The notes under the pieces were generated by a model. It had not been told where the DNA came from and did not search any database. It was given only the letters and a program-made list of their open reading frames with translations. Position numbers and translations under genes: made by a program. Below are positions 1,002 to 39,400 of a DNA stretch of 53,026 nt, piece after piece. Origin of the DNA: Perkinsus olseni (lineage: Eukaryota); contig JABANN010000208.1 of NCBI GenBank assembly GCA_013115125.1, forward strand, positions 1 to 53,026. The letters are read 5' to 3'. Numbering within the stretch: the first letter of the stretch is position 1; every line of letters begins with the position of its first letter.

Positions 1002-1495
1002 GCAGTCCTGTAGTGAGCCCTGTGCTGGGGTGTCGAAGGGGTGTGTCGACAGGGAGGAGCAGGGAAAGTAGCGCTAACTGGGACAGGCAGACCCCCGACA
1101 CACCCCGGATGTCCCAGAGCAGGCGGAAGCTTCCACTGTAGGCTGTAGCGCGAATGGGAGGGCGAGATAGCGCTCGGCACTTATTCTGGAGGAATTGGCC
1201 AGAAAAGGGAAATTAGTGGCCTGAAAAATGGGTTTGGCCAGGCGCGCGAGAAAGAGAAAAGCGGGAAAGGGAGAAAGGGGGCAGAAAACGAATCTTGACA
1301 AGGGAGAGTAAAATTTTGAGGGAGAGGAGGAAAAAGTTGACAAGGAAGAGAAAAATGTTGACGAGCTGAAGCATATGCCTCGCACGTCGCGGGTTCGAAT
1401 CCCACGACGTCTGTTTCTAAGTAGGTGATAATTGGCGTCAACTAGGCAACTTCTGACCTGTTTTAGCGCAGCTTACGGTGCCACTAGCCGCCTGT

Positions 1496-1651
1496 GTTAT
1501 GGGAAGGCCGCGAAAAAGTGAAAAAACGCATTTTTTGGGTGAAAAGCGGTAAATTTCAATTTTTCTTGAAATTTCGGCTGGCCGCCGAAATTTCATGAAA
1601 TTTTCGAAATTGAAATGTCTGAAACGTGAAATTTCACAGGGCCTACATAAC
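1496..1651. mobile_element. Possible non-autonomous DNA transposon remnant rich in GAAATTTC palindromes
   Basis: Perfect 12-bp inverted repeat TGAAATTTCGGC/GCCGAAATTTCA at 1567-1595, several GAAATT motifs, and imperfect inverted ends GTTATG..AGGCC / GGCCTACATAAC. Confidence 0.35.
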
Positions 1652-2844: not shown

Positions 2845-5800
2845 ATGAAGACATGCTACTACGAGATCCTCGGAGTTGATCGCAGCTGCTCGGCCGATGA
2901 CATCAAGAAAGCGTAAGACCACTGCCAACACGTCTTAAGTCTTTGCTTGGAGGACCGCAGTAGCTCGCGGCTGGGAGAGTTATTGAAGACCTCTATTGTG
3001 TATTATTGGCGTGATGACAGCAGCCAGAAGCGGCCTTTGTGCTGAAGAGACGTGGCGATTATACCATGTACAGCACGATGTATGAGGAAAGCTTCTATCG
3101 AGAAAAAATCTGAAATATATTATCGTCGAATTGACGCAGAATTTTCACCTGAATACGACGGTGGAATTATGAGGTTCGTTCTCATCAGGTACCGGAAACT
3201 GGCGCTGAAGTGGCACCCGGATAAGAACCAGAATTCGGATGACGCTAAGGAAGTAGTTATTCCTCGTCGCATGTTACTTGTTTTAACCTGTGGTCTGAGG
3301 AAATATTCTCTGGCGCTGGAAGCTCTCTGGTGGAGAGCGGACACATGCCGGCTCCCCGCCATTCAAATTCACTCCAATCGGTTATACAGATCGACTGAAG
3401 GTGTCACCACAGTGGCACCCCGCACGATCATCGACGGTCTCAGCTCCTTTTCCCGTGGTTTTTAGATGTTCCAGCTGATCACGGAAGCTAATGAAGTCCT
3501 CAGCGACCCACAGGAGCGTGCATGGTATGACGATCATCGAGACCAGATCTTGAGAGGGGACGACGCCCTTGATACGGACGAGGAATCGAAGGAAGAGGCT
3601 GGTAGTGAATTTCGTTCGGGAGTGGAGTGCATTTAATACTGATAACAATAAATATAAGATACTAATAATAAATAATATCTGAGGTATGGTATTTAGTATA
3701 CTATATGAATCTAGTAATAGTAGTAATTTGATAGGCTAGAATATAATGGAGTTCCACCCGCGATGTGAAAAACACATCGCGAAATCCACGCTCGACAAGT
3801 GAAAAACGCGTAAGACACCCGAGGTGTTTCACTCGCGGTGATCGTGAAATTTCCAAATTTTACTTAACTCAATTCCAGCAGATGAGAGCAAAAGGTTTAG
3901 TTGGCTACGCCTGTGCCTGTCTGCTGATGATACAGGAAGTCAAAATAATAATATTGCATGGCACAGTGGAGTCCACTGAGTGGACTTATCGGTGCAATTA
4001 GACAGAGCCGTATGGCGATTCGGATCAAGAATGGGTCGTTTCACTGACATGGTGTCTGAGATTCATAACTGCCAGTGTAGTTTGGAGGAGTTATCAACAG
4101 TGTTAAGAAAATCTGTTGACTTGACAGTCCTACCGTGAGTAGGTCACTTAGTTAACGTATGGAAGTACTTCAACAAGAGCTGCTTCAATGGCCAGTACGA
4201 CGACTCCCAAGACGGCTTTTTCTCGGTGTAAGTACCTTTTCCTAATCCCATGCCCTTTTGGACTGGTGTGAGATTGCAGGTACAGATCCGTCTTTGGGGA
4301 CATCGCCCATCGGGAGTGCGAGGGCTTCGATACCCGTTTTGATTTGGAGGATTTTCCCACTTTTGGGTATTCTGATTCGCCTTGGGACCCCACTGTCAAG
4401 CTATTCTACAGGTAGTTAGGGATGTAGTACATATACCACACGCTTTTCACTGGGAATACTACTGTCGCCCGGTGGTGATATAGATGAGAAGAAGAGTTTA
4501 AGGCTCGTAGAAGGAGCGCAGGATGGTTCTCGGGAACAACTGAACGATCAAAACGACACTAATATCGACGCCTGTGATGCACTGAGAAGGATAGGGCGGT
4601 GGCGCTGGCGACGACACCGTGGCTACGACCGAGCGTAAGGAGCGTCAGTTGGACCACTAGTGCTACCCGCCGGTCATAAACAGCCCTCTGTGCACCCTCT
4701 ATGTGACACTGAAGAATAATAATGAGGCTACTATGCCGCATCCAATCATGAGGCCACTCGACGAAGATGCGGTATCGGTCGGTGCGGTTTGTGAGGAACT
4801 GGGATTGAGCGTACCGCTGTACTCTCCTGGTCAGCTTTCGGAGGCCTGTCTATAGCCGGGACAAGTTGAGCAGTGAGCGTTCAAAGATGCGTCGAACCGA
4901 TCGATCTGAGATTCTTAGTTGGAGTTAAAATCTGTCTTTACACGTTTGTATCCGGTGGATGAACTCCGTGTCTTGGTGCCATCTTCTGAAGTTGGAAATT
5001 TGCACTCGAGTTTCGCGTATACGACTGTGATATCTTTTCGCATGCCGGGTGGTGCCAGAGTGAGCTTTTGTGTCTGCAGTTTCTGGTCTGCATTTTCATC
5101 TGGATTGTCGTTTGGTTGGTATGATAAATGGGACGTACGTCAAGCAGAGGGGCGGCGGATGAGGCGAGCCATGGAGCAGGAGAATGCTCGAGAGAGGAAA
5201 AGTAAAAAGAAGGATTATAATGATAAGGTAATGACAGTCTTACCCAGGCTGACGGATCGCCTATGGTTTCTGATTACCCCGAAAAATTGAAGAAAATTTT
5301 CTCAACTTCGGCTATCGCCTTTAAAGCATGCCCTGTCGCCTCCTTTAAAGCATGCTCTGTCGCCTCCTTTAAAGCATGCCCTGTCGTATACTCGCGAGTG
5401 GCTGCTCGAGAAATCTTGTAACTCGTGTAAGCTCGTGAAGGTAGAAATTGAGAGACGTTAAAGAAGAAGAGGGGGGAGACGGCCTCGCCGGACGCGTTGA
5501 GTTTCGCCAGTAGTAACTTCAACGCTCGTCGTTTCGTTGAGGACAGGCTGGCTTGAGTTATGGATTGACTCTCCTCTTGTGACTGTCTAATAGTTATCCT
5601 GGCGATGATCGATCTGTAGGTCCGCCACTTGGTGGAGTATGTCCGAAACCGAGATCCGAGAGTGGCCGAGCAAAAGAAAGTGGAACAAATGGAAGCGGAC
5701 AGAGTGTAATAGGACGATTAGTGTTATGCTGTGTGAGGGTGGGTCGTGGCAGTGCTGAGCAACGTCAGGCGGAGCGAAAGCGGAAGGAAGAGTTGAAAAA

Positions 5801-8422
5801 GGAGAGAAGGGCGCGGGCCAGGTCATAGGGGAGAGTGCTCGCTGTCAGTACCCTCCTGGGTCTGATGATCACATGGTTTGGGTCCTTTCTCATTTTGGGT
5901 AGTCCGCGAATTTTCGCTGGTTGAGCGTGGTGTGGTATGACTGTCCACTCGGTGGTATCGTCTCCTATGTGATGTTGTTGTTAGGGAGGTTCAAGAGAAG
6001 CGATGGGCTGAGAATGAGGCTGAGGTTGCTGCCATGGCTAAGCGGTATGGCGGGCCTGGCTCAGAGGACTCGGGAGAGGACCAGACGCAGCAGGAGGTAG
6101 TAGTGGTAGTCGGCAGGAGGGATTGATACAGCTCAAAATGCTTCCCTAAGAAACGAGTGCTTCTTGTGGAAGAGATCTCGCTCGCCCTCGTCATTTTCCT
6201 AGGTAGGGTTTGTACTTTTCTAAGGTAGGCGAGCCATCGGGTTACTAGGTGCCTTAGGTAACGGCCAGACCTTTTATAACAGCCTTCGTGTTTTTGTCGA
6301 GATTTCTCCGGTAGATGGAACGCTGTCTCCCCGGAAGATTGCCGTTGGTCGATTGATGTCTGTGGTAGGAAGTCCAAGACGTATACGAGTGTGCGGCATG
6401 CAAGAAGGTTTTCAAGAGTCACAAGGCTTACGCGAACCACGAGAACTCTAAAAAGCACAAGGCAAGTTAATCTCAGATGCTGGGCGGGATGTTTTTCAAC
6501 TCAGTGAGGCTTAGTGTTGTGGAAAGAGTGATCTTCGATGGGTAGCACGGGGATGGAAATATCGCGTTTCGAGCGTCTCGCGCATGGGGGTGGTCACCGC
6601 GTTGTTCGTTTAGTCTGAATGCATGAGCATTCGCATACGGGGAATTCATATTGGCTGTGAATGGCCTATTGAATGATTCATGTTAGTGATCTACCAGCGG
6701 TAGATCGACGCTAGCGAAATTCACCGAGCAGAGGTTCAATCCCTGGTAAAGAGATCGGATATGCGTACCACTAGGTGATGCGAATAAGTGGTGCGAGCTA
6801 CGTAGGCTAGCATAAGTTAGTGAACCTGCCGTGACATTTAGTATTGGTTTATTGGGGCAGAGCCCCATAAGATGATTTGCTCAACCCAACCACTCCCTGG
6901 ATGCGGAGGTAGGCCACAGAAATCCATCCAGCCATCCACAGATTGTAGATGTGGTGGGGCTAGCTTTCAGTGACCTACTGGATAACCTCTTGCAACAACT
7001 GCATGTTGTTGTCGGGCATCCACATCCCCCAACCTCTGCATCATGGGAATTTCGGTTTCTGGACACAATTCGAGCATACACTCTGAATCGCCGTGCTTTG
7101 TTGCGTACTTCTATTTGAGAATCTATTCGCCGGAGTTTTCCCCCACTACTTTTTACCGAATTGAAATTCGTGGTCTCTTTTTTCAGGATGCTGTAGAGAA
7201 GCTCCGCAGGACTTTGATAGAGGACGACGCTTTTCTCGAGAGTCTGGCGGCGTCAAGTGAAGAGAGCTCGCCTGTTCTGGAGGAGACGCAGAAAGTTGAG
7301 GTTGAAAAAGAGGCGGAGCGAAGCGATTCGGGTTCTGATAGTGAGGGTTCGGTGACGGTCGAGGCTGCGACTGAAAAGAAGCTAGAGGTGTCAGCAAGCG
7401 ACTTGTTAGACGGCTACGTTGACGCGGAGAAGAGCGAACAGGGGTCGTCGTCCTGGGAGAAAATTGAACGGGCTGACGGGTCTTCGGAGTCGAGCGATGA
7501 GAGCGAAATTGAATTTGAAGTTTTTGGTAGAAATAAGGATGCCCTGGGAGGGGATGAGGAAGAGGATGAGGAAGAGGTGGCGAGCCCGAAGAAGTCCAAG
7601 GCTAGCTCGATTGGGGTAGGGCGCGATTTTTGGGATTTATGGTATCGGGTTTATCGTTGCTGTGTGCTAAGTCTCGACCTAGACCATTTTTCCAGCTCTT
7701 TTCTGGCCTCGCCTTTCTTGAACCTCGAGTTTTACGCTTCATCTCAGGTACCAGCAGGTGGTGATGATGAACCAAAATCTAGCGGAGCGAAGCAGCATCG
7801 GCGACGACGAAAAGACAAGTCTGCTGAGGATGGAGCAGAGGCTAAAGAAACGGCTACGAAGCGGTGTGATGTCTGCGGAGAAAGGTAGTGGACGATGCGC
7901 TAGTGCCCCTCATCACCGAGCCTTTATCGTCTACAAACACGACTCTGAGTTCGCCGTAGCGAGAGTTGCTAGTTTCAGTCTGATAGGAGCGGTTTCTGAG
8001 TGGTCGATGGGATTTGCTTCACCGCGTTGTACGGCGTTGTCTTCTGTGGAAAAGTCTGGACTTTGACTTCTTTCCTGACGTGGGTCGATAAATTTTGTAC
8101 ACAGCTCCAACAGAGGTTGGAGATGGTGTGGTATGGCGATCGCTTTATTGTAGTAAAATAATCATGTTATCATCATTATTTTACGCTCTAACAATCACCT
8201 TTTCGGTCAATTAAAAAAGTCAGAAATTTAGATTCCTACACAATCTAAGGTTCAGAATTGGATTGTTGAATATATACAGAGAGGGGTGGTGAGTGAATTG
8301 GTTGTGGTAGCTTCTCGAGTCGGACAAAGCTCTTCGCGCACATCAAGGAGATGGGCCATGCAGCGGCGAAGGAGGTCTCGCGGAGCAAGTCTAAGAAGGG
8401 CGGCAAGAGGCGTGCTAAGTAG
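2845..8422 (+). CDS. DNAJC21: DnaJ subfamily C member 21 / Jjj1-like J-domain and C2H2 zinc-finger protein (60S biogenesis co-chaperone), multi-exon
   Basis: Spliced exons give [36 protein letters not shown] (HPD motif) and [25 protein letters not shown]. They continue [25 protein letters not shown], zinc finger [26 protein letters not shown], and terminal finger [23 protein letters not shown]. Stop TAG at 8420-8422. Confidence 0.92.
2983..3100 (+). repeat. 118-nt intronic dispersed element, copy 1 (DNAJC21 intron 1)
   Basis: Matches the reverse complement of 27898-28015 with 3 mismatches. Confidence 0.9.
5318..5386 (+). repeat. 24-bp minisatellite, about 3 copies, intronic
   Basis: Unit CCTTTAAAGCATGCYCTGTCGCCT starts at 5318, 5342 and 5366. 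Confidence 0.9.
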
Positions 8423-8977
8423 CAATCTCATTGTTCCATTGGTGAAACTGATTCAACCTGTTTCTCATGGGGTGGGGTAGTTGGATTTGCGGGCGGTTGG
8501 GCGTGGAGTGGTATTATCGAGAGAAGTTGCTGCTTCACTCTGTCAGCGCGGAGTTACGAAGAGGTTTTCCGGAGGCGTACTCAAATGCTTCTCCCTTAAG
8601 GGGCTCGGCCCGACGGTCGCGGGCAAGCTGTAGTGGTTCGCTCAGTGCGTCATCGTCGTTTATCTTCTCTTGTGTATCGTCAACTGCTTCTTTTTCTTAG
8701 GATTGGGACTGGAATGTATTATACGAGTTGAACCGAGCCTAGGGATTGTATAGGGGCGATGGGTGTCACGGTGTTTCCGCTGTAGGCGGCGGTGTAGGAG
8801 ATCATTGATAGGCTTTTTGATTGAAAAACCGCAAAATGGCATGGCGAAGGGCAAAAATTGTATCAGTTAGGACCAGTTGTATCATGTGGGACCGACTCTA
8901 GATGGGTTGGGGATTGCATGGCAGAGTGTGTATTGCCTTTTTAGCAGTTTTGATAGCTCAGCTGGTTCTCCCGTTGT

Positions 8978-10486
8978 TTGCCAATGATTGACGACTTCCT
9001 CGAGTCACTGCAGCCAGTGGTGAGCGACAGTGAGAGCAGCGACACTGAAGATAGACAGGTGGAATTACCTTGGGCGTATGCAAGGTTGAAAGATACTTTT
9101 TCTAGGTTGAAGACAAGCCCGTATCTGCTCGGGTGTATGGGCGAGAGGAGTTGGAGTCTGTAGAGAGGCTCCTTGTGTGCACTTCTTTGGCGTCTTCCTT
9201 GAGGTGTGGTATTGAGGGGTTGCCGAGCAAAGGTAGTAGTCCGAGGGTGGACGGGATTAGTTTCTGTCGCTCGAAAATAGGAAGTTCGGGAAGATGACTT
9301 TTCGTCGTTCCTTTTTTCCTCCTCAAAGTTTCATTTTAACGGAGTTATTTCATCTCGGTGGGATTAATATTTCCGAGAGCAGCTCATTCAGCTGAACGCT
9401 AAATCTGAGATTGATCGCAGTGTCACTATACCTAAACTGATTGGGATAGGGACTCTTCTGACCGGATAAGCATAGGGCCTGATGTATGTAATCGCCATAG
9501 TCGTCGTCTGTGGTCAGGTCGAATAGATGTGCCGAGAGTCGACTACGTGCCCACTACGTCCGATGCAGTGTTGACTGTTCCGACTCGATACAACGGCCCG
9601 AGCTTGAAGGGTTTGGTATGGGGTAAATTGAGACCGAAGGAAGTTGTTGTGGCGATTACAAAGGAAGTCAGCAGCACGAGAGGGGAGGATGGCATAGTGT
9701 AATGCGAGAGGTGTCTGGTTCGATCCTTGGCAGGGCTATTTTTCTAGGTATACTCTCGGTGACCATGATAGTGGTGATCAGAGTTACCAGCCATTGCCCT
9801 TAGGGGAGGCAGTAGACGGACCAGTAGCAGGCATCATCACGGGGTGAGGTGGGGGAGGGGTGGTAGGGCACTGAAGTAAACAGTCCGCGATCGATGTTGT
9901 TCTCAAGAGGCAACAATTGCGGAATAGCTCACTTTTGGCAGAGGTCGTGTGCGCATGATAATTCCACCTATCGGATGACCCTGGCCGCGCTCCTGAATCA
10001 GGAGTCCTGATAGCGCTAGCAGAGGCATAGCTTGATGATAAGCGAGGCGCTCGATGATATCGTCTTGCTGTCCTCCTGTGGGTTAGCTGACCAGCCGGAC
10101 TAGTCTGTAGTGGGTATTTGAACTGCGTTGGGGGTGGCGAATTTCTACCTGATGAGTGAATCGCTCTATGATACCGTCTCTCTGTGGATCAGCGGACCAG
10201 ATAGATTAGGCTGGAAATGGGAAGGGGCCGTTGATTATGTGCTTTTAAACACCTTTGGGGGAGGCGAATTCCATGCTTACCTCTTCTCACTCGAACCTTT
10301 ATGGCTCTGTTCAGTGCGGTGGCGAGGAAGATCCCGGTCGCAGCCTACATACTCTACCACGGGCCTCATCCGGGCTCCTCCGCCATACTCAAATTGGCAG
10401 CCGCGGTGTCGTCGCATGGTGAGAAACATCTACCAACTGGATTGGAGATCCATTGCGGACTTTTTTTCAGGAAAATGGAATCTTAG
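8978..10486 (+). pseudogene. Possible decayed hypothetical gene
   Basis: Short protein-like frames (MIDDFLESLQPVVSDSESSDTED, EELESVERLLVC, VPRVDYVPTTSDAVLTVP, ALFSAVARKIPVAAY) separated by stops and frame changes. No family recognised. Confidence 0.25.
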
Positions 10487-10839
10487 CTTGAAGAAGGTTC
10501 ATGACGGGTTTATAAAGCTTAGCCCGTCGCTCGATAACAGAGTTTCCGTGTATATGTGAGTACGAGTATACCAGTTTCAGTATCTTTTTCGATTGCGTTG
10601 AAGCCGTACCATCCATCCGGCTTCTCTCAATCTGGCCGTGCCAGGTCGGTAAAAGGTTGTAAGCTTCCGGTGGATACGAAAAAGATTTTGTTGTTTTTCT
10701 TTCTCGAATGTACTGCTGATTTTTGCGGGCTGTGTGGCGACTCTGGCCGGTGCCGGGCGGAAATCTTCTCTGTGCGGGTAGAAGATGATACCTGCTCTAG
10801 TGTGTTGGTTTCTCTTTTGCTGCTGCTGCTGCTGTTGCC

Positions 10840-13800
10840 ATGCCGCGAATGCGTCCAGACCATCTCATCGTGCAGCGGCAGAAGCAGGAGAGGCTGTAAG
10901 CAGGACGAGTTGGATCATGGCGGTTCACTACATTAACTCTCCCCTCCCTTCACTGTCTTCATTTTTTTGAACGGAGGTTGCCTGCCATGGCCCTGAGCTT
11001 ATCGTTAATGCTAGGCGGCAAGGAAACGGCCGACGAAACGGTTAATCGATATATCATTGACTTTCTCTCGTGAGAATACATAAGCGGTCGGATTTTGGTG
11101 TGAAATAACTTCGTGTTTGCGGAAAAACCTCAATTTTTCCGATTTGCTTGACGAGTTGGTCCACCCTGAACGTTTTGGCCTCCTGCGTTAGGTACGAGGA
11201 GCGTGTGTCTGCTGCGGTCGAGAGCTCCTCCTTGCAGAAGCTGGCTGAATGGGAGAATAAAGGGGGACAGGTAGTAGGGGATGATGATGGTCCTCACCGG
11301 GAGCGCCTCTAAGGTTCTTCTTCTCCTGTTAAGTCGTTCGGATATGGTCCATTTCATATGGGTGACTATTTCCACTGCGCTCCGGCGGTTCGAACAACCT
11401 CCCTCGTTGGGTTGGAACCCATTCAACAGCAGCATCACTAATCTAGCCCCGTTACAGTGCTCATGAACTTGATAATAACAGGATTCGACTCAATTGCGCT
11501 GCAATTTTACTTCTTTTCCCTTTGGCGCGGTTGAATCGCCGCACATTTACTTGCCGGATGCTGCTATCATCTATCATCATCATCATGCACTTATGTCAGT
11601 ATTAGTGTATTGCGGTTGATATCAGTAGTATTCTTAGCGTGTTGTCTATCGTGAGTCGTTGATGTACCGAACCGAACTGTAGTGGATTCTCAGAGGAATC
11701 TGTTATAAGTATTATAGAGCATTACGCTCTACTAGCGCGGCTTGTGTCCGATGGAAGATATTAAGGGACACATCCGCACAGACAATTGAGTGAGTGAATA
11801 CACCGGATCACCGCATTGTCAGTTGTATCGGAAGCAGAGGGTGAACGCTTGCATCGCGGACCTGCGCAAACGCCGACAGCTTTTCTTGCACCACAGAAGA
11901 GCTAAACTGTCGGAGCTGCTGAAGAGGGAAGAGTGAGGAGAACGATTACCTTCGTGTGGTTTTCTTCGGTTCACGAATTTCGTGGCGCGCGGGAAAAGCC
12001 GAATTTTCCGAACGAATTCGAATGGGATAACTTGCTTCTTGTGGTGAGGTTGCTCAGTTGTACGAAAAATATGGCGATGAACCGCGGGAAAAATATTTTT
12101 CCTCTTCCGATGGGAGAAGCCTTTACTGTCAGAGCGATGTACGCGCAAGAGCTGGAAGATCGTAGGGAGACGTCAGAGCAGCAGAATGAGAAACTGAGAG
12201 AACGGGCGTTGAAGTTGAAGGCGGAGAGGGAGGAGGAGAGGATGGCGATTGCCAAGGAGAAAGAGTGAGTGGTGAAAGAGAGGGCGACATGCTTTGTGTG
12301 GGGTGGTACAGCAGTAACAATTGGGCGAAATGTGGTACTAGAGATGGTGCGTTCATATTTTATTGAAATGACGCTACTTTTGGTCGAGGTAGCATATTGT
12401 GATAAAACTACACTAAGCTTTCCTGGAGGAGCAGTGGAGCGTCATTCTCGCGTGAAGTTGAGCATTCTCAGTAATTTTCGAATGTCGGACAAGGCCGGTA
12501 GAGCTCGTTCTTCCGCTACTGTCCTTCCGCGTTTCTCTCCTGATGATTCTGTTTCTGGGAGGTTTCGTTGCCAGCGACGACTTCAAGTATTATTATTGTT
12601 ATTCTCTGACACGTCACAGTATGACCAGTGTATGCATTTCCGAACGGCGCTGACGTATTTCGTGGCGCGCGGTCAGGTATCAACGGTGGAGAGCGAGCCT
12701 TGATGAACTGCGGCAGGCGGATCATGAGTTGTTCGCATTGGAGGTGACTACTTCGGGCTGTTCGATTCGGGCAATACTGGCGTCGGAAAATGTGGGACAT
12801 CATTCGGCAAATCTTTTTTGGTGGATTTACGGTACGTGAGTGAGCTCAGCAATTACGAATCTGTGTTTGTTGGTGGCGTGTCTATCATGAAAACCCGTGA
12901 AACGGTTTTTCGGGTTGTCTTTTGACTAGCGTAGATGGTGGGGGGCCTTTGTATAGCTGGAAATGTAACGAGCAACATTCGGCAGCAAAACTTGCTCGCG
13001 CCGGAGTGGTGAGTTCGAGTAATATCTTTTTAACATCGCTCGCTGCCCTCTGTGATCGCGGCACGTCAGGTGGTGGCGACTAGGGACCAGCAGCTGACGG
13101 AAAAGGAGGATGTTAAGAAAATGGAGAAAGAGGAAGAAGCTATTTATGATAGGCTGTGGCAGGAGGGGTGGGTATTTGGAGATGCCGTGCTGCTAGCGTC
13201 ACAGTAGCGGGAGGGATACAGGATTAACGTTTGGAGTGGTACGATTACCTGAGTTCTACGGGGAAATTATTCATGGGCCCTTAATCATGGCAGTGGGAGT
13301 TATTGTTAAGAAAGCCGGTACTCGGAATGGTGGCCTTTCCTACCACCACTAAGGATGGACTCGTTTCACCTGAGTAGACTGCAAATGTTATAATTTAGGG
13401 ATTTGGACCACTTGCTGCTGGCAGCAGCAGTAGCAGCAGCAGCACCGGATGTAGGTACAAGACGAAGGTTGTGCGGGAACTAGCGCAGGAGCAGATCAAA
13501 GCAGCTCGGACTGCCCTGGCCAAGGAGACGTTGGATGAGCAGATGAAGCTGAAGAAGGCTGAGGAAAAAGTAGGGCTCCTTTTACTGATGGAATTTACAA
13601 TGCTTTGTTCTATCTTTTCGCCATTCCACGAGCGCTGAGGGCAACCGGTCGTATGCTGATTGATGCCGACTGTTGTTGAATGATGAAGCGTCAACCTCGC
13701 TGGGGCTTTCAAAGTTCACGGGGCTTTAGATGGCAAGTACTGTATAGCTATCCCGGCAATTCTGTTTTAGTGATTTCCTCGATGACCATCGGCGCCGCGG

Positions 13801-23563: not shown

Positions 23564-23773
23564 CTCGCACCACCGGGGGGACTCAATTTTGTTAATGCTC
23601 TGCAGGACGCGTGTTCCCTGGAGGTTCATTGTGGGGCTGCCGTTCTCTTGTACGATTTTTCATAGCGTCTGATAGCGCTTAATGTGGGTGTTTCGTTGAG
23701 CTCAATTGCCCGTCCGGTAGGCCGGTAGTCGGCGTCCCGAGCCACGTATCATTGGAGGTTTTGGCTTACCGTT

Positions 23774-25288
23774 ATGGCGTCCTCCCGGCTGCCGGTGTCA
23801 CTGAATGGGGAGACAGTGCTCCGGTGCAGCTCAGACTTATCGCGGGTCAAGAGCCTGGCTGGGGCGCTGTTTAGCTGCTACAAGGCGAAAAACGTGACCA
23901 GAAGACGGGTTGAGGCGGTCGGTACTTTGGCGCATTGGAACGCATGCAAGGTGATCTACAGGGAAAGTACTGCTCTCATCTGGTTGAACAAGGTCCTATC
24001 GGGATTTGAACCCGAGTCGCTGGATTCAAAGTCCAGAGTGCTAACCACTACACTATAGGACCATGAAAATTACAGAAGTGGAGCAGGGGTCTCCGCGGCT
24101 TTAGTTCTTAGCTTCTGTTCTTGGCTCGCTCTCCTGTTGCTCCTTCTGTATTCGAGCATTCCCTGTTCTACGCACGAGCCGTACTGCACGTGCATTTTGA
24201 GAGCGTCGGGGTTGGGTCGCGTCTCTTATTCACCCACCTCAGGCAATTGGCCTGTGCAATAAATTCCTTCTCGAGCGCTTTCAAGATAAACAGGGAGAAG
24301 AGGCATTCCCGAGGACTGCTCTCGCCTTCACTCCCCTTACGGTCGATGAGGTAGGCTCGTCGTGTTGAGCGGTACTTCTTTGCTCGTCTCCCCAGATGAC
24401 TGATGCAGAGACCGCGCCCAGTGATGTGAATCCGGTGGAGCTACGGCAGCGTACTTACCAGTTCGAGTTGTATGACGTTGCCAAGCTGTACTGCATGGAG
24501 GATGCCGCTATTAGGCAGGTAATCACACGTTCTTTCAAAGCTCATAGAGGTTAGCACGTTTGGCAATTCTATGGTACCCAGAGGCGACAAGAATTTGACT
24601 ACTTGCATAATTGCAATCGTGAAGCGTCTGTTAATTCTGCTGTTCTTGCCGGAGGTCAAATGCTTGAAGTTGATCGTTGGACAACAGGCACTATGGGTTG
24701 CACCAGATGACGATGTTCTCTATATATCGGGGAAAACGAAGGTCGACAAGTTCGCAGAGGTACTTCGGTACCGGATCGAAGAGTCTCTCCAGGTGAACTC
24801 CGGGCTGTTATCATTCTGTGCATCATTCTGTCTCTTGACGCCTTTACAATATACTATAGCGATCGTCCTTTTTGTTACTCAGTCTAGCGTCCATTCAGAG
24901 ATCCCTCGCGTTAACAGAGTATCGGTTCCCGATGCTCAGGTTCATACCCACGTTGCTGGAGCTTATCCCATGGATCGGTTCCTAAAAGCTGCGCTTCGAA
25001 TAGAGAAGGACAAGGAAGAAAACAGACTAGCTCAGGAGAGGTGAGGAGACGCTCACGTGTTGTCGGCGTATGTGCAGTAGGGGCGAGCCCGTTACTGTAG
25101 CTTTCCGTGGTAGGAGGAACCGTCGTTTCCGTCGAACGGAGTCCCGCGGAGTGATCGCCTACATGCCCTGTCCCATCCGTGTGAATGCGGATATGGGAAT
25201 CATGCAGTTAGTGGCGATGACACTGCCACTTGATGAGATCATGCGAGGGGAACCTGCTGCTGACCGCACCCCTCCACAGAGGGCTTGA
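23774..25288 (+). CDS. Hypothetical protein, about 5 exons
   Basis: ATG at 23774. Phase-compatible GT-AG exons MASSRLPVSLNG..HWNACK|MTDAETAP..AAIRQ|ALWVAPDDDVLY..EESLQ|SSVHSEIP..LAQER|RNRRFRR..PPQRA. No recognisable domain. Confidence 0.7.
23991..24062 (-). tRNA. tRNA-Gln(TTG)
   Basis: Reverse complement GGTCCTATAGTGTAGTGGTTAGCACTCTGGACTTTGAATCCAGCGACTCGGGTTCAAATCCCGATAGGACCT forms a full cloverleaf with anticodon TTG. Confidence 0.96.
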
Positions 25289-25516
25289 CGTGTCGTTTCC
25301 GCTACAACTAGCCTGTCGTGTCAAGTCATGGTGTTGATGTACGTATCTTCTGCATGCAAAATACTACTTCCAACGAGTTATGACGGGAGAGCGATGCAGT
25401 CAGGGATGTCACTATGATGAATAAGATATACCGAGGGAGATTAAGGGGAACATCAAACTGACTACCAGTATGATTCTTTCGATGTTGCCGGGGGTAAGAA
25501 ATTACTGAAGTAAAAT

Positions 25517-25589
25517 TGGAGAACCCGGGCATCGATCCCGGTGCCTCTCGCTTGCTAAGCGAGCGCTCTACCATTTGAGCTAGTCCCCC
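25517..25589 (-). tRNA. tRNA-Ala(AGC)
   Basis: Reverse complement GGGGGACTAGCTCAAATGGTAGAGCGCTCGCTTAGCAAGCGAGAGGCACCGGGATCGATGCCCGGGTTCTCCA. Anticodon AGC and G3:U70 pair. Confidence 0.96.
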
Positions 25590-25830
25590 ACACGAGATTT
25601 ACGAAGTTTAGCCTGTACGATAGGTGTACGGAATCTGCCCTTCCACACAAAACGTAGGCGGGGACCTCGAGCGAGAATCATTTGCACTCTCCCTCCCTGC
25701 CTTGACGACGTTCATGAATGGAGCCTGACTCAACTTCACAACGCGAAACAAGCAGTAGCCGAAGAAACGTTAGGAAAGGTGGCAGTGGAGGTCCGTAGTG
25801 AACATAGAAATTGTACAGACTCCTCATCGA

Positions 25831-29270: not shown

Positions 29271-29564
29271 TATAATGGAATTAGTAAGACTTGACTGTCG
29301 GACAGTCGGCCAGGAAAAAATGACAGAAAAAAGCAGCCACCGGGGCTCGAACCTGGTACCTTTGGTGTGGGGGTTGTATTGAAACGCTTTATTTGTGAGC
29401 ACGTATCGAAGTAACTGTCCCTTGCCATTCTCGGGCCCTTCGATCCCCATCGGCCGTCCTTGAGTGGTGCATTGGACTGCATGGAGGTCCTCTCACAGCA
29501 GCCGCTGTAATTTCGTGGCGCCGCGGTCATGGTAGGGTACCCTATCCCCTGTCAAAAGAACTGG

Positions 29565-29677
29565 GGGTGTTCAACAGACTGATGCCTCTGCAGACTTTCG
29601 GGAGCGCTCCCAGGATCGGATTTAACGTATTAAAGTGCTTCACGGGTGCCCTTCTCTTGAGAGTCAGGGGAGATAGC
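29565..29677. mobile_element. MITE-like element, copy C (LTV1/PFDN2 divergent intergenic region)
   Basis: GGGTGTTCAACAGACTGATGCCTCT ... TCAGGGGAGATAGC. The interior aligns with copy A and with the reverse complement of copy B. Confidence 0.7.
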
Positions 29678-30821: not shown

Positions 30822-33154
30822 ATGTCAGAGGTGGACAAGCGGCTGAGCCCCTTGGTCAAGAAGGTGGACCAACTCATCTCCAAGGTAATGTCTGTTGCAC
30901 GGCTCAACCTAAGGTTCTTCCCTGTGCGCAAAGATACTCTTCTGTCTCCAGATTACCTCCTCTGGCCAGCATGCGTCTTCGAATCTGATTAATGAGGTCG
31001 GGCAGGTGTGCGTAGATCTGACGCCCTCAAGGGACCAATCTTGGCGGGCAGCCAAGAGAGTCCTTGCCGTCGGCTCCATAGAGAATAAGGGCTATCTAGG
31101 TCGGTTGAAGCTTGCTTGTCGCAGAAAAAAAGATACTAGCTTCAGCTATGTGCCTGGTGGACTCCATCGTTCGACACGAGACCAAGCACAAGAGTCCGGA
31201 CGCCCAATGCTCCTTTGCGAACCTCTTCGCTGACCATGTTTGCCGACTAACCCGGAGGGTAAGGCGCTGGTGATGGGCGCGCAGCGGGAAGAATATCTTT
31301 GTTTTTCTGCTGGTAGGCCTTGTCGGTGCATGCAACAGACAGCGAGTTGGGCAGGATGGGGAAGATGCTGCAGGGCTGGGTTTCGAAGAAGCGCTTCGAT
31401 GCAGCGGTGAGGGAGGAGCTTGAGGGATCTTCGACTGTGGCTTGTGCAAATTTTTGGGGCCACTTTCGTCTGGGGTGCATCTCTACGAGGAAGGGTATGG
31501 CAGGTCGACCTTCTCCGTGCGAGATTAGAATAATAGAAAGATACGCATGTGATGATTGTTGCAACAGTGAGAAATGAATGGTGCCGGCGGCTGGATTGCT
31601 CATAGACCTCGGCTGCGCTTGGAACATCCGTGCCCCTGGTGATTCTGTCTATCGCTATGTGGTGGCGCTCAGGTTACGAAAAAACTGAAGGCCCTCATTC
31701 CAGATGCCACTGATGTTGTTAACAACGGCCTTCGCCGACGACGACAGTCCAAGCGGAAACGGAGGAGCCGAGATTTGGACGACGGCGCATCACCAACCGT
31801 GTCACCATCTAGGGCAGGCACAGGGACGACGGTGCTGCATCATGGGCTGATGGTTGACCAGTTCTTGCGGGATGAGGAGGATGATGATGACCACCATCCA
31901 GCGGAAAGGGGGTCTCCGCGGGAGGAGGAGGAAGAGTTGGTAACGAGGCCGCCGTCGCCGTTGCTGCCGCCAGCAGTTGATCCGAGACCGGTGCCCTCGG
32001 GCGAGCAGGTCGGTGAGAAGGAGGCGCGCCCGTCGTCTCCAGGTGGAGGGTTTACAAAGCCTCCTGAGGCAGGCGATGCATGGACAAGCTCGCCGCCTGC
32101 TGGGGGCGTTAGGGAAATGCGAGGGAGTGCAAGAAGCTCAAGAAACGAGGAGAGAGACCGGGACAGTGGGAGTCACCGTAGGAGGGAGTCACGGCGAGGG
32201 TCGAGGAGAAGCCAATCACGCGAGCGAGGGCATCGGGGGAGGAGCCGGTCTGCCGAGAGGGGTAGTAGAAGTGGTAGAAGCCGCAGTCGAGATCGCCACG
32301 CTTCATCGTCCAGTCGCCGGCATCAGTCGAGGCAGCCAGAGCAGCGTTCTCGTTCGCCCAGGGATGGTTGTGGTAGCAGTCGTCATCGGAGCTCCTCTCA
32401 TGGCCGACGGTCGTTTGGCCGCCACGCGGAAGGCGACGTGAGCGTGGATTTGCCGAAGAGAGCGTCGCAGCACAGCGGGTGGGATGTGGTCCCAACAGGA
32501 GCAGCAGCAGGGCCGGTTACACCGGTGGAGGCCTCCCCGGCGGCACCGCCTCCGCCGCCCTACTCCGCCCAGGGCTTCAACAACCCTATTGGTTTTCCTC
32601 CTATACCGGGCCCTGGTGCCCCGCCTCCGGCTGCCTTCGTGCCCCCTCAGTTCCCTGGCATGATCGGCATGCCCCCTCAAGGGCCCCTCGGAGGAGCCTT
32701 CGCTGGGGCTAGGCCACAGCCGATGTATCCGATGCCGTCCGCTTCGCCCCCGCCGCCCCCGCCGCCTGCATTTGGACAGGGGATGAACGCTCCCTTTGCT
32801 CCGCCGCCGATACCCCAGCCAGCCCACCCTGCTCGGACGAAGGCCCCGGCGTTTCCGTGGCGACCGGCGACGGTCCAGCGGCCCCAAGGGGTGAGCGCGG
32901 AAGCGAAGACAGGCGAGAAGGACGATGATGATGAGTCGAGCGAGATGGATATCGACAGTCCTCGGGTGGTTGAGGAAAAAGAGGTGGTGGTGATTGAGAA
33001 AGAGGAGGTTGCGGGGGTCGAACCTGCGAAGGGCGAGAGTAGTCCAACTGCGGCAGAGGAGGCTGACGCGCTCGACAGTTTAGGCGAGGTTTCCAATCAA
33101 GAAGAGAAGGGAGGTGATAAAGGAGAAGAAGAGGATGAATTCAATTGGGACTGA
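30822..33154 (+). CDS. CTD-interacting domain (CID) protein with RS-rich, Pro-rich and acidic regions (SCAF4/8- or Nrd1-like)
   Basis: Spliced N-terminus contains KGYLAMCLVDSIVRHE..FANLF..LGRMGKMLQGWVSKKRF, resembling CID helices (LYVIDSIVR..KIVRVLNLW). A long last exon carries RSRSRDR repeats, SGWDVVP and poly-Pro. Confidence 0.7.
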
Positions 33155-33477
33155 GATCGGCCCATCTTGGTGGTGGTTGGAGCAGTAGTGTCAGTGCCCT
33201 ATGTATCATTGTAGGAGGATTCGGCAAGGAGTGGTATGGATGGCGGCCAAGTCGTACGCAGTTACATTACCCTATCACGCCGCTGCTGCCAAGCAGCATT
33301 ACGTTGATTATTATTATTGTCGATTTGGCTCAGCCGCCTGCCGGCGAAATTGTATCTTATTCGTGAACTCATGGCAGTGTTGGGTTGTTGTTCAATGTGG
33401 GTAATCGAAAGGTCCCTGGTTCGATCCCGGCTCAGTGCTTTGATGATGGACCATGGCCTTGAGGGACTGCGTTTCAG

Positions 33478-36400
33478 GATGGGAGACGATTTTGGCATGC
33501 CGCCTTTAGTCGCTTCGGTAAGTTTCGACTGCGAGATGAACCGATAAATCATTAATCTCTAATCACTCGACGGATTGCTCATGTGAATTACAGAAAGAAC
33601 GATCCTCGCTGAAGCGACGCAAAACTTTTGCGGCTGAAGCTGGTTTGGTATTACTCATGATCTCGTGCTCTCGCTATCCCCACGTCATCCGAATGAACTC
33701 TTCTCTACCTACTGTAGAAGAATCTCCGTGGCTGTTGTCCAGGCGCGGTCTCCTCCTACTTGATCACGCGTTGTCGGCGGTGTTGGTTCGTCTTTTCTGC
33801 TGGCCGAGAGGGGCTGGAGGGAGTTCTACCAATGCGCCTTTCGGCATCATGCTCTTGAGGAGGCCGGTTAGGTTCTGGAGCAGCGAGGCATGGTAGAAGC
33901 CGACCCAGACCCATCGAGGGAGGCGAGTTTGGGTGGCAGTGGTGGACGGAGAAGCGCCAAGTTGGATAAGTACGGGCATGCCGGTGGTGGTGTGGACGGT
34001 GCGCTCCGAAATCTGTCTGCATGGGCGGACCATTGGTCAGCGTGATAGCTGCAGTGCTATCAGTTCGCTGGGCAGTTTCTTAGTCGATGTCATGTTGATT
34101 AATAGGGCCTCAGTCATGTGGGGGCCGAGAGTGAATGAAAGAAGGCTTTCTCTCTGCTGCTCATGCTAAGCATAAACATTCTCTCTGACGGATCTGAATG
34201 GCTTTGGTATTGTAACGAGGAGATGTCCAGCTGTCCAGCCTTCGCTCAGTTTCCTTCAGCAGCGAGGCGATTGGAACCTATACTGGAAGAGCGGACGGTT
34301 CAGACCATCGGAGTATGCTGGTGTCAAACCGTAATAGTGCTGATGGCGATGGTGGATGGGGACAGGGGGTTGCGTCGATAGTTACCAGAAGATGAATCAT
34401 TTTCCGAGATTGGGTTGCATCACTAGAAAGGACAGCTTGGTTCGGATTATGAGGAGGATGGCAGCGGTGCATGGCTCCCAGGTAGAACAATTGTATTCGT
34501 TAAATGACGGATAACATATCTTATCCAGTCGATGCGATCGACTACTCACTCGTGGTCGCCAACACTCCGAAAGATCTTGCTAACTTTTGCGCTGCCCTCC
34601 AACATTAGATTCGGGCGGCCTCTAGACCCTCCGCGTCGAATGGTCTTTATCGCCGATTGAGAATGCAATTCTCCAGCGTGTAATCTGTCAGGTCTATGGT
34701 TTCGTACCGGAGGCCTATATTCTTCCGAATGAGTACACTAAGTTCGTAGAGACTTACTCGGAGCAAGACGAATGCTCTCGAGCGGTAAACTAGAAGGGCT
34801 TACGCTGGGCAGAAGATTGCAGGGATGGATTTTTGGACGTCCCTTGATTTGCTTGGTGTGGGTGTTGAACCTGTGCCCCTCCTCTAGGGCCTGGAATCCT
34901 ATTGCGAGGAGCTACAGTTCCGCTCTAGATTGCCTACGCTGGAGGGCAGTGTTGCTAATGTGTCGGAGCATATGAGAGCTTGGCAATCTATCGATGACAT
35001 CAGTCGTTTCTGATCCCAGCTTAGCGGAGCGAAGCGCGGAATGTTTTGCATTTTTCCGGTATGTAGGTGTGGATCTGCAAACCGGCTGATAGCTCTCGAG
35101 GGAGGAACATATTTTTGTTGCGAAATTTGGAAGACCTTCGATACGACTCTCAGTTCGTTATCCAGAGGTGAGCTCACCAGTTTCTCCATGGATCGCCGGA
35201 GGACTCCTCTGTTCTCTCAGCTCGTGAATTAGTAATGGAGTGGTATGCACGCATGCGCAAGGTACATAGAGAGGCCCTTCCTCGTTGGTGGATATAAGTG
35301 CGACCTGCGTGTGTATGTATTGGTGGTCAGCGTTCATCCCCTGAAGGCCTACATTTATCGGGATGGTCTTGTGAGGTAAGCACCCCGAGGTCAAAACGTT
35401 TGTGAGTAATTCCAATTCCGCTCGCCACCTGGATCAAGGCCTCCCGCCTAGATTTACGCGGCACAGACGGGCTGCAGGGCGAGACGCGGATGTATATCCG
35501 ATCTTTCCAAATTTCACTTATCCCTCCCGAAGTCGCTCGCCATTGGACTTGGCAAACGGCCAGTGGTGCGAGAAATGGATCTTTTCCGGCTATGAATTCG
35601 GGATATTCTTTCATGGGAATTAACGCGTAGAATTCTCCACTGATTTCCGGAAATTCTCAGAAGCATTCAGGAGAGCTGGAAAAGCATTATCCTTCGATGG
35701 CCCCTCGTGTGAAAGGACGCTCGGCTTATGGCCTACGCGGAAAGTTTTGTTGGGCGTATCTTTTGGTCGACGCGTGCCCCCACCAGTCGAGCGCCGAAGC
35801 CCTCTGGGTCCTGGTGCACACGCTCGTGTATACCGGTTGCAGTTGGGGTTTATAATGAGGGGCTGCGTGTCATGTCGAGTAATCAACGCAGCCTCACACC
35901 ATTGGAGGACTCTTAGCTTCGCAACTGGTCGAGAAGTGTAGGGCTCGTTCTCTAGCTCAAGATTCGGATCGAATATTCTTCATACTGAGATCATTCGGTA
36001 ATTCTGATCCATTAAAAGGTCGGATCCCGGTGGTAGACTTCTTACCCGAAAGCTAAAGGGTGTACTGCAGATGGGTGAAGGCAACAAGAACCCTCCAGTG
36101 GATAACACATGGATCGCACAAGGGTTATTCATTTCCCTGAAACATCTTTGTCTAAACTTCCGAACACCACGTCAGAGTGTCCGTTCGGCATTGAGCGCGA
36201 CCCTAAGGGTCGCCTCTCCGCACGTCGGTAGTGGTTCCTTCTTCCGTTTACGATTTGCTCCAGGTGTGGTATTCCGACGCTAGCCCGGCGGCGTAGTAGA
36301 CTAATGATGTACCGGCTCCATGTATGACAGCCGTTGAGCAACTTGGAAGTCGTGCGTGTCGTGCCTGACGATAACGATGGAGTGTACAGCACGTGGTTCC

Positions 36401-39400
36401 TCACTGCCAGCAAAATGATCACTGGTGCCGAAAAGGACGAAGATAACGCCGAGAAAGAACTACGAAATCGCTCATAGCGCCGGCACTGACCCCAGGGAAA
36501 CGGCAGCTGCGCGGTCTCAGGGCGGAGTTCGGGCGGCCTATGCTAGTCTGCGGAGGACTACCAATTGTAGCCCGAGCCCTCAACCTCTTGAGCCATGCCA
36601 TGCCTGTTATGCCCAGCTGGGTTGAGCGCGCAACCCAATCTCGTGTACAGGTATCGGCATAACCGATAACTCGTTTTCATGATAGTTCTGAGTTCCGTCT
36701 ATATTATCGAGTTCACTGAACGTTATCCAACCTACAGCTTTGAGTTCATGCCATGAACTTCATGACTCGTGATTCCGTATCGGTGGTATTCGCATGTTTG
36801 CCTCACGAGGGGGCGGAAGTAGACATGCTGCCAACCTCGTATAGAATTCGTGTTGTGAGCGGCTCTGGTGCACTATCAAAGTTGTCAGTCTCGCAACTGT
36901 GAATCAGAGTGCTTCCTAACGGCTGCATCGCATCATCAGAGTGTCTGATAATGCGTTGCAGCCGCTACGCAGCACTCGCCATGAGGCTCAGCATGTCAGT
37001 CCACGGCTCAGGTTCGGGACGAGCGAGTATGACCTGGGGTCCCTATCGAACAAGTTCTCGCATCTCACCAACAGCTCGATCAACAAACTATCTCCCACGC
37101 TCGAATCGGATAAATGCGGAATAGGTAGTTGAACGGGTTTCGGTGGGGTACTATAGCCACTGCGTCTAGTAATAGAGGTAAAAGTTTCCTAGAGCTCATC
37201 GTCGCATAGCGTAGCATATACCAATATGAGTCAGATGACTGCATCAGGCTTGCCCGTACTGAACATCCATAATGTTCTCCGCGGACAGCGCCTACGCGGC
37301 GGTAGCCGGGTGGCCCGGAAGAGGGCCCGGCACTACCCGGCACTTGTCGGTTGGCCCAGCGACCTACCCGGTGTTACCTGGCAAGTCTGTAGGGCCTAGT
37401 ATTCATCATTTTCACGTAACGAATAGTTAGTGAAAGACGGTGCCTGTTCCAGAGAAGTGTTCCACATACAGACTGTATCCGTGATGGCAGCGATGTGGAG
37501 GTTTCTCGGGCGCCCGAACAGAGAGCGTGAGTCAGAGGTATATATAATATATACGGACTCCCACAATATACAACGCCCCGCTATATTATAGAGCGATTGC
37601 ATCGGCACGCATGCAGCCCGAGTTTTGCCCGGCACTTCGCCACCGGCGGGAGATGGGCCCCAAGCACGACTTACCGGGCGGCCCAGTACTACTGGGCCAG
37701 TACTACTGGGCCAGTAGCCTACTCCATGAAAATACGACACCTATGCGTACAATCCTCGGGCAGTCTGTGCTTCTCCTCAATCGCCCGTTTCGTACCGAAA
37801 TTTGCCTGGTGGCATCATTTCTCCTCAACGCACAGCATTCGAGTCCAATACAATTTTCCGGGTGTCCTGCAACGTAATGGCTTCGACTCGAAGCTTTCGA
37901 GGTTGTTGCTGAACCGCATCATAGTACGGCATTCCGGCCCAGGATACCGGCCCTGGGACCCGGGGTAGGACGGATTCTCGCAATTTTTGTTCCTCTCACC
38001 TCTCAGTTTGTGAGTGACAAGTATTCCGGCAATTCTCCGACCACCTCTATCTTTGCCGTCATTTTCCGCTCATCCACTGGTCAATTTTCTGTCGTTTCCC
38101 AAAAATTGGGGAAATACTTCCGTGAATGGCGGAAATTCTCTGCATGAGAGTGGTGATGCGGTGCGGACGATTTGCTGAGCAGGTCCAGGGTGTAAATGGA
38201 CCTTTAAACAGCTAGAAGCGCATTTCGTGGCTGGCAGATTAGATGACAAGTTGCTGTGGAGTCGGATTATTAATCTAGTTAATGCTACACTTCTCAACTT
38301 GGTAGGCTCTTTGTAGGCCGAGCGTCGTTGGGCCTCGTGGTGGAGATATACAGTATTTCTTACAGCTTGAGGTGGTAGGTTCGATTACCGGTCCGGATGT
38401 TTTATAAGCCACCACTCATCGCTTCTGCCGTTACCGTGTACTTTGCGGTTGACTATCCTTCCGTGCAGATTCTCGCGGTCCCTCGGAATCCAGGAGTGTC
38501 GGGACAGCAGAACTACTTTGAGCTCTTCGGGTTCGATGTTGTTATCGATGAGAAGATGCGTCCGTGGTTGGTAGAGGCAGGCTGGACACTTTGATGGATT
38601 TTGTGGCGCAGTGACGCGGACCAGGTGAATTGCTCGCCAGCTCTGCAAGTTGACTGCCCGGTTGACGAAAGTGTGAAGAAGCCTTTGGTAGAGGATCTCC
38701 TAGACGTCATCTATCATCCCAATGTGAGTTTTCGGGTTAACGCAAGGAAGGGTGTCAGCGTGCACATGGACAGGTGCATGACCTAGTGTTTCCCTCGCCG
38801 GTTCGGTCTTCCTGTGAGGAGCCATTTTCCGCTTGTCCCCGAACCATCGGTGAGTTCCTGACCTGGCATCAGGCGGCGTGGGATGATAGGCCATTCTAGT
38901 GTGGTGCTGGTGGTCTCTTTGAACAACTCAACACGCGGATAAGCGTTGGCTATCCAGGCGGGCGGGTTTCTCCCTCCATTGTGTAACTATCACAGCACGA
39001 TTCGTGGGATTTATGGTATATCTTTGCTGCTGACCTTCAGGCCAGTTCTCGCTCATATTCCCATTCAATGCGGAGGTCGAGGCCTTGGCGCTTCAGGGCA
39101 AGCCGATAGCCTCTGGTGAGCAACCCGGTGAGAATTCCCGCTAATGATACCGCTAATCCGCCAATTCATACCGATTTTGACGGCAAGCGTTCAGGCGGGA
39201 AAGCCTCAGCGAGCCAGGCTGACGCTTTGATGCGCTCCATCGTGTCCCACCTGCGGAGGGTTGATAAGAACATACGGCAGTACGCTGCGGAGAGCCAGCG
39301 GTATCGTCAAGATGTAGGCGGCGGCTGGTCGTAAAAAGTCGCAGATGTGGTAGCGATTACGAGGTCAGTCATATGCACACACGACAGGATCCGTCGTATA

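Follow-up and report, generated by a model that had tools for sequence, protein, structure and literature searches.

Dispersed tRNA pseudogenes, tRNA-derived short interspersed nuclear elements (SINEs), introner elements, and extra-TFIIIC (ETC) sites are the known kinds of sequence with which scattered pieces of transfer RNA (tRNA) genes can be compared. The origin of new spliceosomal introns is an old question, and transposon-like introners, duplications, and break repair are their known sources. Perkinsus olseni is a parasite of molluscs (shellfish) and a relative of the dinoflagellates. In this study, one window of the P. olseni genome, i.e., the whole stretch of 53,026 nucleotides (nt) from contig JABANN010000208.1, was analyzed on both strands, and all counts of motifs and fragments given below refer to it. 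The results showed that this 53-kb window contains 17 tRNA fragments, 9 on the plus strand and 8 on the minus strand, each built around the T-arm motif known as the B-box (GGTTCRANNCC). The fragments are tRNA-derived and 3'-biased, have no tRNA function, form no single family, and are found in introns with splice sites at the element ends. In membership tests, none of the known kinds was fully matched by them.

Like the fragments described here, the tRNA pseudogenes and the 5'-truncated or tailless retro-copies of animals are scattered in both orientations, stem from many tRNA species, and are dead, without tRNA function. In contrast to those copies, the Perkinsus fragments consist nearly always of a 3' part, end in oligo-T rather than in CCA, show no target duplications, occur approximately once per 3 kb, and in several cases constitute a whole spliceosomal intron. 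The characters of a SINE are largely missing from the window: there is no family and no tRNA-unrelated body (the T-run lies 11 nt past the B-box), and the A box is absent and the B box present. The ETC sites of yeasts and mammals share with the fragments a B-box without an A-box or a tRNA and an independence of orientation. Judged by their sequence, the fragments have a B box without an A box or a transcribed tRNA, but they keep a terminator and the acceptor strand and are mostly intronic, not intergenic.

Introners in Micromonas and Aureococcus are cited, and those of Amoebophrya reported, in PMC7789003. In introners, a short insert forms the entire intron with splice sites at its ends, and introners are near-identical families, often with terminal inverted or direct repeats. 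In the window, three elements likewise are whole introns (9699-9747, 14258-14311, and 16780-16847), whereas the copies are all different and tRNA-derived, and near-identical copies, terminal repeats, and target duplications are absent. For P. marinus scaffolds, Kojima and Jurka (PMC3706591) give 349 tRNA-Leu-CTT, 116 tRNA-Gly-GGA, and 46 tRNA-Ile-ATT genes that are >95% identical to consensus, and they describe Dada, a group of DNA transposons of this species with tRNA genes as their target, which they split at TAGCTC in the A box. The genus Perkinsus thus has an unusually large stock of tRNA genes, and the Dada system shares with ours the genus and the very high tRNA gene copy numbers. However, neither Dada ends nor 6-7 bp duplications nor a transposase were seen beside the fragments. 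Had a gene been split at the A box, positions 8-73 would remain; most of the relics start far later, in the anticodon or variable loop. The full-text literature searched, which covered few subscription journals, contained no description of introns derived from tRNAs or of relic B-boxes in Perkinsus.

The B-box motif occurs far more often than expected. There were 15 exact matches on the two strands, against a mean of 0.84 (standard deviation 0.91, largest value 3) in 100 dinucleotide shuffles and a mean of 0.9 (largest value 5) in a second set of 200 dinucleotide shuffles, i.e., an approximately 17-fold excess. Of these matches, two belong to the T loops of tRNA-Gln and tRNA-Thr, and the other 13 lie outside any tRNA. 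An initial annotation, made from the sequence, had listed 13 degenerate segments, and all of them are present. Nine carry an exact motif (1392, 20963, 21205, and 33418 on the plus strand; 14282, 16802, 20693, 29343, and 34861 on the minus strand), three have one mismatch (9717 and 38378, plus; 15587, minus), and one has two mismatches (22938, minus). Four exact B-boxes had been overlooked (6733, 20536, and 45367, plus; 33014, minus), and the plus strand has two weaker candidates (42733 and 30462). Inexact forms of the motif are not enriched: B-boxes with one mismatch numbered 24 (21.9 expected from shuffles) and those with two mismatches 210 (240 expected), both at chance. The initial annotation had named two outcomes that would refute it: B-boxes with a stem no more frequent than in shuffled introns, or a likeness to tRNA that ends with the 11-mer. 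The first is contradicted by the 17-fold excess of the motif, and the second by a likeness that takes in the variable loop as well as the terminator and the 3' acceptor strand before it.

When the 13 exact fragments were anchored on the motif, the consensus was agG.C.Ca-GGTTCGA..CC-Cgc......C.Tttt. It comprises the variable loop, the T arm, and 11 nt that equal a 3' acceptor strand in length; an oligo-T run comes next. A TTT beginning 9-16 nt past the motif was found in 11 of 16 fragments, compared with 9.7% of 20000 random positions (p = 2e-8), which bears out the earlier remark that several fragments are followed by a T-run; among the exact fragments, 8 of 13 had it. Sorted by the number of B-box mismatches (0, 1, 2, and 3), the carriers of a T-run were 8/15, 8/24, 24/210, and 127/1275 (background 9.7%), so that the excess is limited to the classes with 0 and 1 mismatch. 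Among the 22 mismatches in the outer T stems, 12 differed from a G-C pair by a single transition (A.C or C.A; p = 3e-4 against 20%). This excess indicates that the flanks of the fragments were formerly T stems. In these 12 mismatches, an A stands for the expected G on the tRNA-sense strand regardless of the orientation of the host gene, and there are only one or two T.G wobbles. We leave this strand-asymmetric G-to-A pattern in the outer T stems of the 13 exact fragments unexplained. General CpG decay was ruled out as its source, with a CpG observed/expected ratio of 0.96 in the window.

The likeness is confined to the 3' part of the tRNA. Two position-specific scoring matrices (PSSMs), one for the T arm and one for the D arm, were made from real tRNAs (maximum 31.5 bits each) and applied at a threshold of at least 12 bits, with the reversed sequence as the null. 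The T-arm PSSM gave 17 matches (null 1), i.e., 14 relics besides the 3 real tRNAs. The D-arm PSSM found 0 relics across the window; its 3 matches were the 3 real tRNAs (null 0). In our own covariance model, built from 23 E. coli tRNAs and the 3 tRNAs of the window, the fragments scored 7-13.5 bits and real tRNAs 69-81 bits, and most fragments aligned only to model positions 44-65. Only the 3 intact genes of the window passed Rfam RF00005 (gathering score 29 bits), and at E-values up to 10 there were 9 matches and no further tRNA, in a strict mode that multiplies E-values by 4227 families. ARAGORN with lowered thresholds made 44 and 201 calls, which were mostly noise and were not used. The fragments thus lack what a functional tRNA has: a cloverleaf score, a D arm with an A box, and a paired T stem (in the 13 exact fragments, the outer positions pair in 17 of 39 cases). 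An origin from permuted or split tRNA genes was considered and ruled out, given that the T-run directly follows the 3' strand. The three intact genes named in the initial annotation were confirmed by both ARAGORN and Rfam and all lie on the minus strand: tRNA-Gln(TTG) at 23991-24062, tRNA-Ala(AGC) at 25516-25590, and tRNA-Thr(AGT) at 43846-43920.

The position of the fragments within genes was determined by mapping exons with predicted proteins of other assemblies (P0008 and P0009 of P. olseni, P0010 of P. chesapeaki, and P0003, P0005, and P0011), and GT-AG junctions were refined until the spliced translation agreed with the mapping proteins. The CFAP53-like gene (8984-16860, plus strand) owes its name to a Pfam TPH match and to the source name 'Cilia- and flagella-associated prot...'. 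It has 21 mapped introns, seven of them 47-68 nt long, and contains 4 fragments (9717, 14282, 15587, and 16802). Three of the seven short introns are single elements. The 49-nt intron 9699-9747 consists nearly entirely of a tRNA 3' fragment in sense orientation (plus strand) with a one-mismatch B-box (9717-9727), and its parts follow the order GTAATG, CGA, variable loop, T arm, acceptor strand, T5, and CTAG. This intron must be spliced because 49 is not divisible by three, and after its removal the junction agrees with P0009 in 93 of 93 residues. The element takes up approximately 44 of the 49 nt and therefore leaves no space for an older intron.

The second of these introns, of 54 nt (14258-14311), corresponds in reverse complement to the 3' part of a tRNA, with the element on the minus strand of a plus-strand gene and an exact B-box at 14282-14292. 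The element begins with CTGAGAA, which resembles an anticodon loop, and ends with TCTTT plus 8 nt. Splicing it out restores 67 of 68 residues, and its 18 codons are absent from P0008, P0009, and P0010. The third, the 68-nt terminal intron 16780-16847, is an antisense tRNA-like element (minus strand) that extends from the D-loop region to T5 and has an exact B-box at 16802-16812; without it, the spliced frame ends in SSNRNSS and a stop codon, identical to P0008 and P0009. The remaining fragment of this gene (15572-15615, minus strand, one-mismatch B-box at 15587, T5) lies inside the 407-nt intron 15250-15656.

Several further features of the CFAP53-like gene were observed. The C-terminus reads ...RRQEAAGGTGRRQ in the P. 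chesapeaki model P0010 and ...RRQEASSNRNSS in the P. olseni models, and the two diverge at the site of the mini-intron 16780-16847. The mini-introns 14258-14311 (54 nt) and 15775-15825 (51 nt) are stop-free multiples of three, and tblastn reads through them; retention of one or the other would add 18 or 17 residues with the frame kept. Four other mini-introns of 47-52 nt (9059-9105, 10419-10470, 15775-15825, and 16570-16616) have no B-box. They show a short hairpin, approximately 10 nt, a T-run, and YAG, or bits like GGTTG or CGAATC approximately 20 nt before the acceptor, and may be older relics or just intron signals. A 34-nt repeat whose GTTCAAC core resembles a T loop is present in 3 copies with 74-100% identity (16042-16075, 28473-28506, and 29559-29592), and the first copy spans the 3' splice site of intron 15907-16060 (…GTGTTCAACAG/ACTGCT…, with the slash at the junction).

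In the PP2C-like gene (plus strand, from approximately 20.5 to beyond 23.2 kb, mapped part 20565-23260), each of four consecutive introns has an element at one end, abutting the splice site (20536, 20693, 20963, and 21205). The name of this gene was given on a sub-threshold Pfam match only (17.7 bits against a cut-off of 20.3) and on motifs that we take to be those of PP2C. A nearly full-length sense element (20490-20564, plus; B-box 20536-20546) ends the intron before exon 20565-20678 with its T-run plus GAAG; the 5' end of this intron is presumed. A nearly full-length antisense element (20679-20752, minus; B-box 20693-20703; model positions 9-65) is the 5' end of the 103-nt intron 20679-20781. 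The 5' end of the 108-nt intron 20945-21052 is a sense tRNA 3' fragment (20945-20988, plus; B-box 20963-20973; T4), and its donor GT stands 18 nt before the B-box, with the same spacing as in the 49-nt intron 9699-9747. A 59-nt intron at 20945 was ruled out, as P0011 gives 108 nt. The fourth, a sense tRNA-like element (21171-21220, plus; B-box 21205-21215; no T-run), also occupies the 5' end of an intron, which starts with GTAGTAGG at 21171. A decayed tRNA-like segment with a two-mismatch B-box at 22938 (22931-22984, minus) lies inside the span of the same gene and is probably intronic, which would make it the tenth such case among the 13 segments first listed.

Two fragments belong to introns of the TTL-family gene (34254-39301, plus strand, Pfam TTL). 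A T-arm fragment without a T-run (34855-34890, minus; B-box 34861-34871) lies in the 282-nt intron 34785-35066, and a tRNA 3' fragment with a one-mismatch B-box at 38378 and T4 (38369-38403, plus) lies between the exons ending at 38304 and starting at 38469. The earlier placement of nine of the 13 segments in introns was reproduced by protein-to-genome mapping, with 4 in the CFAP53-like gene, 3 in the PP2C-like gene (20693, 20963, and 21205), and 2 in the TTL-family gene. Altogether, the CFAP53-like, PP2C-like, and TTL-family genes contain 11 of the 17 fragments within approximately 15.7 of the 53 kb. Whole-intron elements make up 3 of the 10 fragments with a mapped intron, or 3 of 11 when 22938, which is only probably intronic, is counted. 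Four elements reach the 3' end of their intron; by our own measurement, the near-palindromic T loop precedes the acceptor by 22-24 nt in three of them and by 38 nt in the fourth.

Other fragments have no mapped intron. At 1392, 29343, and 33418, there is no mapped gene. The first is a tRNA 3' fragment with a T arm, an exact B-box (1392-1402), and a T-run (1385-1412, plus), which scored 13.5 bits over model positions 46-65. The other two, detected by the motif and the covariance model, are tRNA 3' fragments at 29327-29375 (minus; exact B-box 29343-29353; T6) and 33401-33441 (plus; exact B-box 33418-33428; TTT). A T arm with an exact B-box from 33014 (33011-33029, minus) falls within a long open frame on the plus strand (31643-33154). 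The motif search also gave an exact B-box without a T-run at 6733-6743 (plus), and another exact B-box lies at 45367-45377 (plus), near the start of the gamma-tubulin-complex gene. Directly past the mucolipin stop codon, at 42712-42765, GTAAGT is followed by a decayed copy with a two-mismatch B-box (42733) and a T-run, which resembles the 49-nt intron 9699-9747 over the first 25 nt.

The fragments are diverse. A repeat-family search of the window grouped none of them. The identity between their flanks averaged 9.3 of 24 positions (null 6.0) and was at most 16 of 24, and there are at least three T-stem types. This diversity is consistent with many tRNA species as sources. The initial annotation had stated that the segments are not one SINE family, and within the window this holds, with no repeat group and flanks of at most 16/24. 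A single mobile family with diverged copies, be it a tRNA-derived SINE or an introner element, is very improbable: a common core and architecture, the mean flank identity above the null, and the introner elements of a related parasitic dinoflagellate (reported in PMC7789003) speak for it, but across the 53 kb examined the low pairwise identity, the several T-stem types, and the lack of a common body or tail, terminal inverted repeats, and target duplications speak against it.

In our opinion, the segments are probably, though far from certainly, dead partial (3') copies of tRNA genes or their primary transcripts, drawn from an amplified stock of tRNA genes, dead on arrival, and tolerated or recruited as introns. 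Their remaining portion extends from the variable loop over the T arm, in which the B-box is intact, and the 3' acceptor strand to the oligo-T terminator. Many tRNA species would have served as the source, with copies placed in both orientations in non-coding DNA. The copies may have been 5'-truncated when they were made, either by copying from the 3' end of RNA polymerase III (Pol III) transcripts or by the capture of gene pieces at breaks. Within genes, they persist only where they are spliced out, some of them inside larger introns; at least three now are the whole intron, and four more supply one intron end. In the sense orientation, the T-run falls at the position of the polypyrimidine tract and a GT near the former anticodon loop is the donor; for antisense elements, the C32-U33 end, read as its reverse complement, gives the acceptor AG. 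The mini-introns would have been created by such insertions, not by fragments replacing older intron sequence.

The ends of the fragments agree in part with target-primed reverse transcription. A shared 3' end (T-run in 11 of 16) and a variable 5' truncation were found, and target-site duplications and an A-rich tail were not. By our own reading, the 5' ends fall at tRNA positions 1-9 in 20536 and 20693, in the D loop in 16802, in the anticodon loop in 9717, 14282, and 20963, and in the variable loop in 1392 and 29343.

Several points weigh against the view that dead 3' copies were taken up as introns. Target-site duplications of at least 7 nt were found in 0 of the 17 elements (chance rate 13%), and no A-tails were seen in the fragment flanks; classical retroposition therefore has no direct mark. 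If the copies were old, their B-boxes should carry mismatches, and the classes with one and two mismatches are at chance. If they were young, their T stems should pair, and only 17 of the 39 outer pairs do. Of these two simple age models, neither fits: this picture of B-boxes and T stems can be produced neither by uniform neutral decay of whole tRNA genes nor by simple youth. The gene models that served as splicing evidence are predictions from other assemblies. The intron 14258-14311 is in frame and stop-free, and what speaks for its splicing is its absence from three gene models. A test of upstream tRNA-likeness placed 7 of 16 fragments beyond the 95th percentile and was given little weight; it called the region upstream of 14282 tRNA-like, although a coding exon lies there, and so gives false positives. 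Lastly, the putative gain of introns is read from their anatomy.

A bolder proposal is that tRNA gene pieces are a recurrent source of new spliceosomal mini-introns in Perkinsus and land in exons in either orientation; we regard it as a tentative possibility, somewhat less probable than its opposite. A 3' copy of a tRNA would then already carry intron signals and be removed by the spliceosome, and its T loop would be located where a branch site is expected. The intact B-box would mark a recent gain or would be kept as an intron signal or a TFIIIC site. The interpretation given in the initial annotation is partly supported. Its suggestion that tRNA pieces are raw material for introns gains support from the anatomy (3 complete mini-introns and 4 elements at a splice site). 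The TFIIIC-binding sites that it also proposed would agree with the all-or-none behavior of the motif. As to the birth and death of tRNA genes inside introns, tRNA relics are indeed there, but whole genes in decay are not what they represent: 14 relics of the T arm stand against 0 of the D arm.

Among the rival explanations, selection on the B-boxes survives best, although we consider it unlikely. The B-boxes would be putative TFIIIC sites left by dead tRNA genes and would act independently of orientation; roles such as chromatin boundaries or obstacles to polymerase II in long, rarely expressed genes are conceivable at the same low level of likelihood. The motif behaves in an all-or-none manner (15 exact matches against 0.9 expected, with the one- and two-mismatch forms at chance), and T-run-bearing relics with 2 or 3 mismatches are without excess (24/210 and 127/1275 against 9.7%). 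Moreover, the loop with its GG/CC is flawless, while the stem next to it pairs in only 17 of 39 positions, the A-box and D-arm are absent as in B-box-only sites, and both orientations are used (9 plus, 8 minus). On the other hand, the T-run and the fixed 11-nt spacing are kept too, although neither is required of a TFIIIC site. Fresh 5'-truncated copies would equally yield the excess of exact matches, as every source tRNA bears the motif, and several of the B-boxes lie in introns of 49-68 nt, where nearly each base is already constrained by splicing.

It is still more doubtful that whole tRNA genes landed in old introns and decayed there, so that the mini-introns would be old introns shrunk by deletion and none would be new. 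Such a history would suit 15587, 34861, and 38378, which lie well within larger introns, the nearly full-length elements 20693 and 20536, and the intact tRNA genes nearby. However, it predicts D-arm relics, of which the D-arm PSSM found none, and many B-boxes with 1-3 mismatches, which show no excess. The 49-nt intron, with its approximately 44 nt of element, also has no room for the older intron that this history requires.

If dead tRNA 3' copies did become introns, tRNA fragments that serve as complete 49-68-nt introns would be an intron source needing no dedicated mobile element, at work in several genes of the 53-kb window and in two orientations. They would explain part of the class of very short introns of P. 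olseni and would tie the extreme amplification of tRNA genes in Perkinsus to the evolution of gene structure. If instead the B-boxes prove conserved, this would be the first alveolate with TFIIIC-type sites packed densely in introns. Should neither be true, the window would still hold unusually abundant tRNA pseudogene fragments, which annotators should mask and which would explain odd sub-threshold tRNA calls.

Every gene that could be placed in the window lies on the plus strand. Besides the three host genes, there are a DnaJ/zuotin gene (approximately 3.0-5.3 kb), a prefoldin gene (near 29.8-30.4 kb), and the gamma-tubulin-complex gene (approximately 45-49.7 kb), all three recognized by Pfam. 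The mucolipin gene has a 599-codon frame (40872-42671) with 100% identity to 'Mucolipin-2 [Perkinsus olseni]' of NCBI. When Pfam was run on 453 open frames, only DnaJ/zuotin, TPH, prefoldin, gamma-tubulin complex, and PKD channel were above the cut-off. The frame 16444-16902 matched no protein when used as a protein-search query, and no relatives of the mucolipin or CFAP53-like protein turned up in two metagenome scans. The TTL-family and mucolipin genes (34254-42671) are annotated as one fused protein in other assemblies (P0003, 945 amino acids; P0005, 918 amino acids), and mucolipin stands alone in the contig's own model (P0001, 592 amino acids).

GC skew is strongly positive (0.09-0.24) and AT skew negative from 4000 to 24000, and GC skew is negative at 26-28 kb. 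The skew at 4000-24000, where all mapped genes are on the plus strand, looks like the transcription-linked G+T excess of long introns. An inverted repeat of 118 nt with 97% complementarity has its arms 24.8 kb apart (2983-3100 and 27898-28015), one of them at the start of the DnaJ/zuotin gene region, and is probably a dispersed repeat. A tandem repeat with a 62-nt unit and at least 3 copies that are 99% identical occupies 52830-53026 and continues past the end of the contig.

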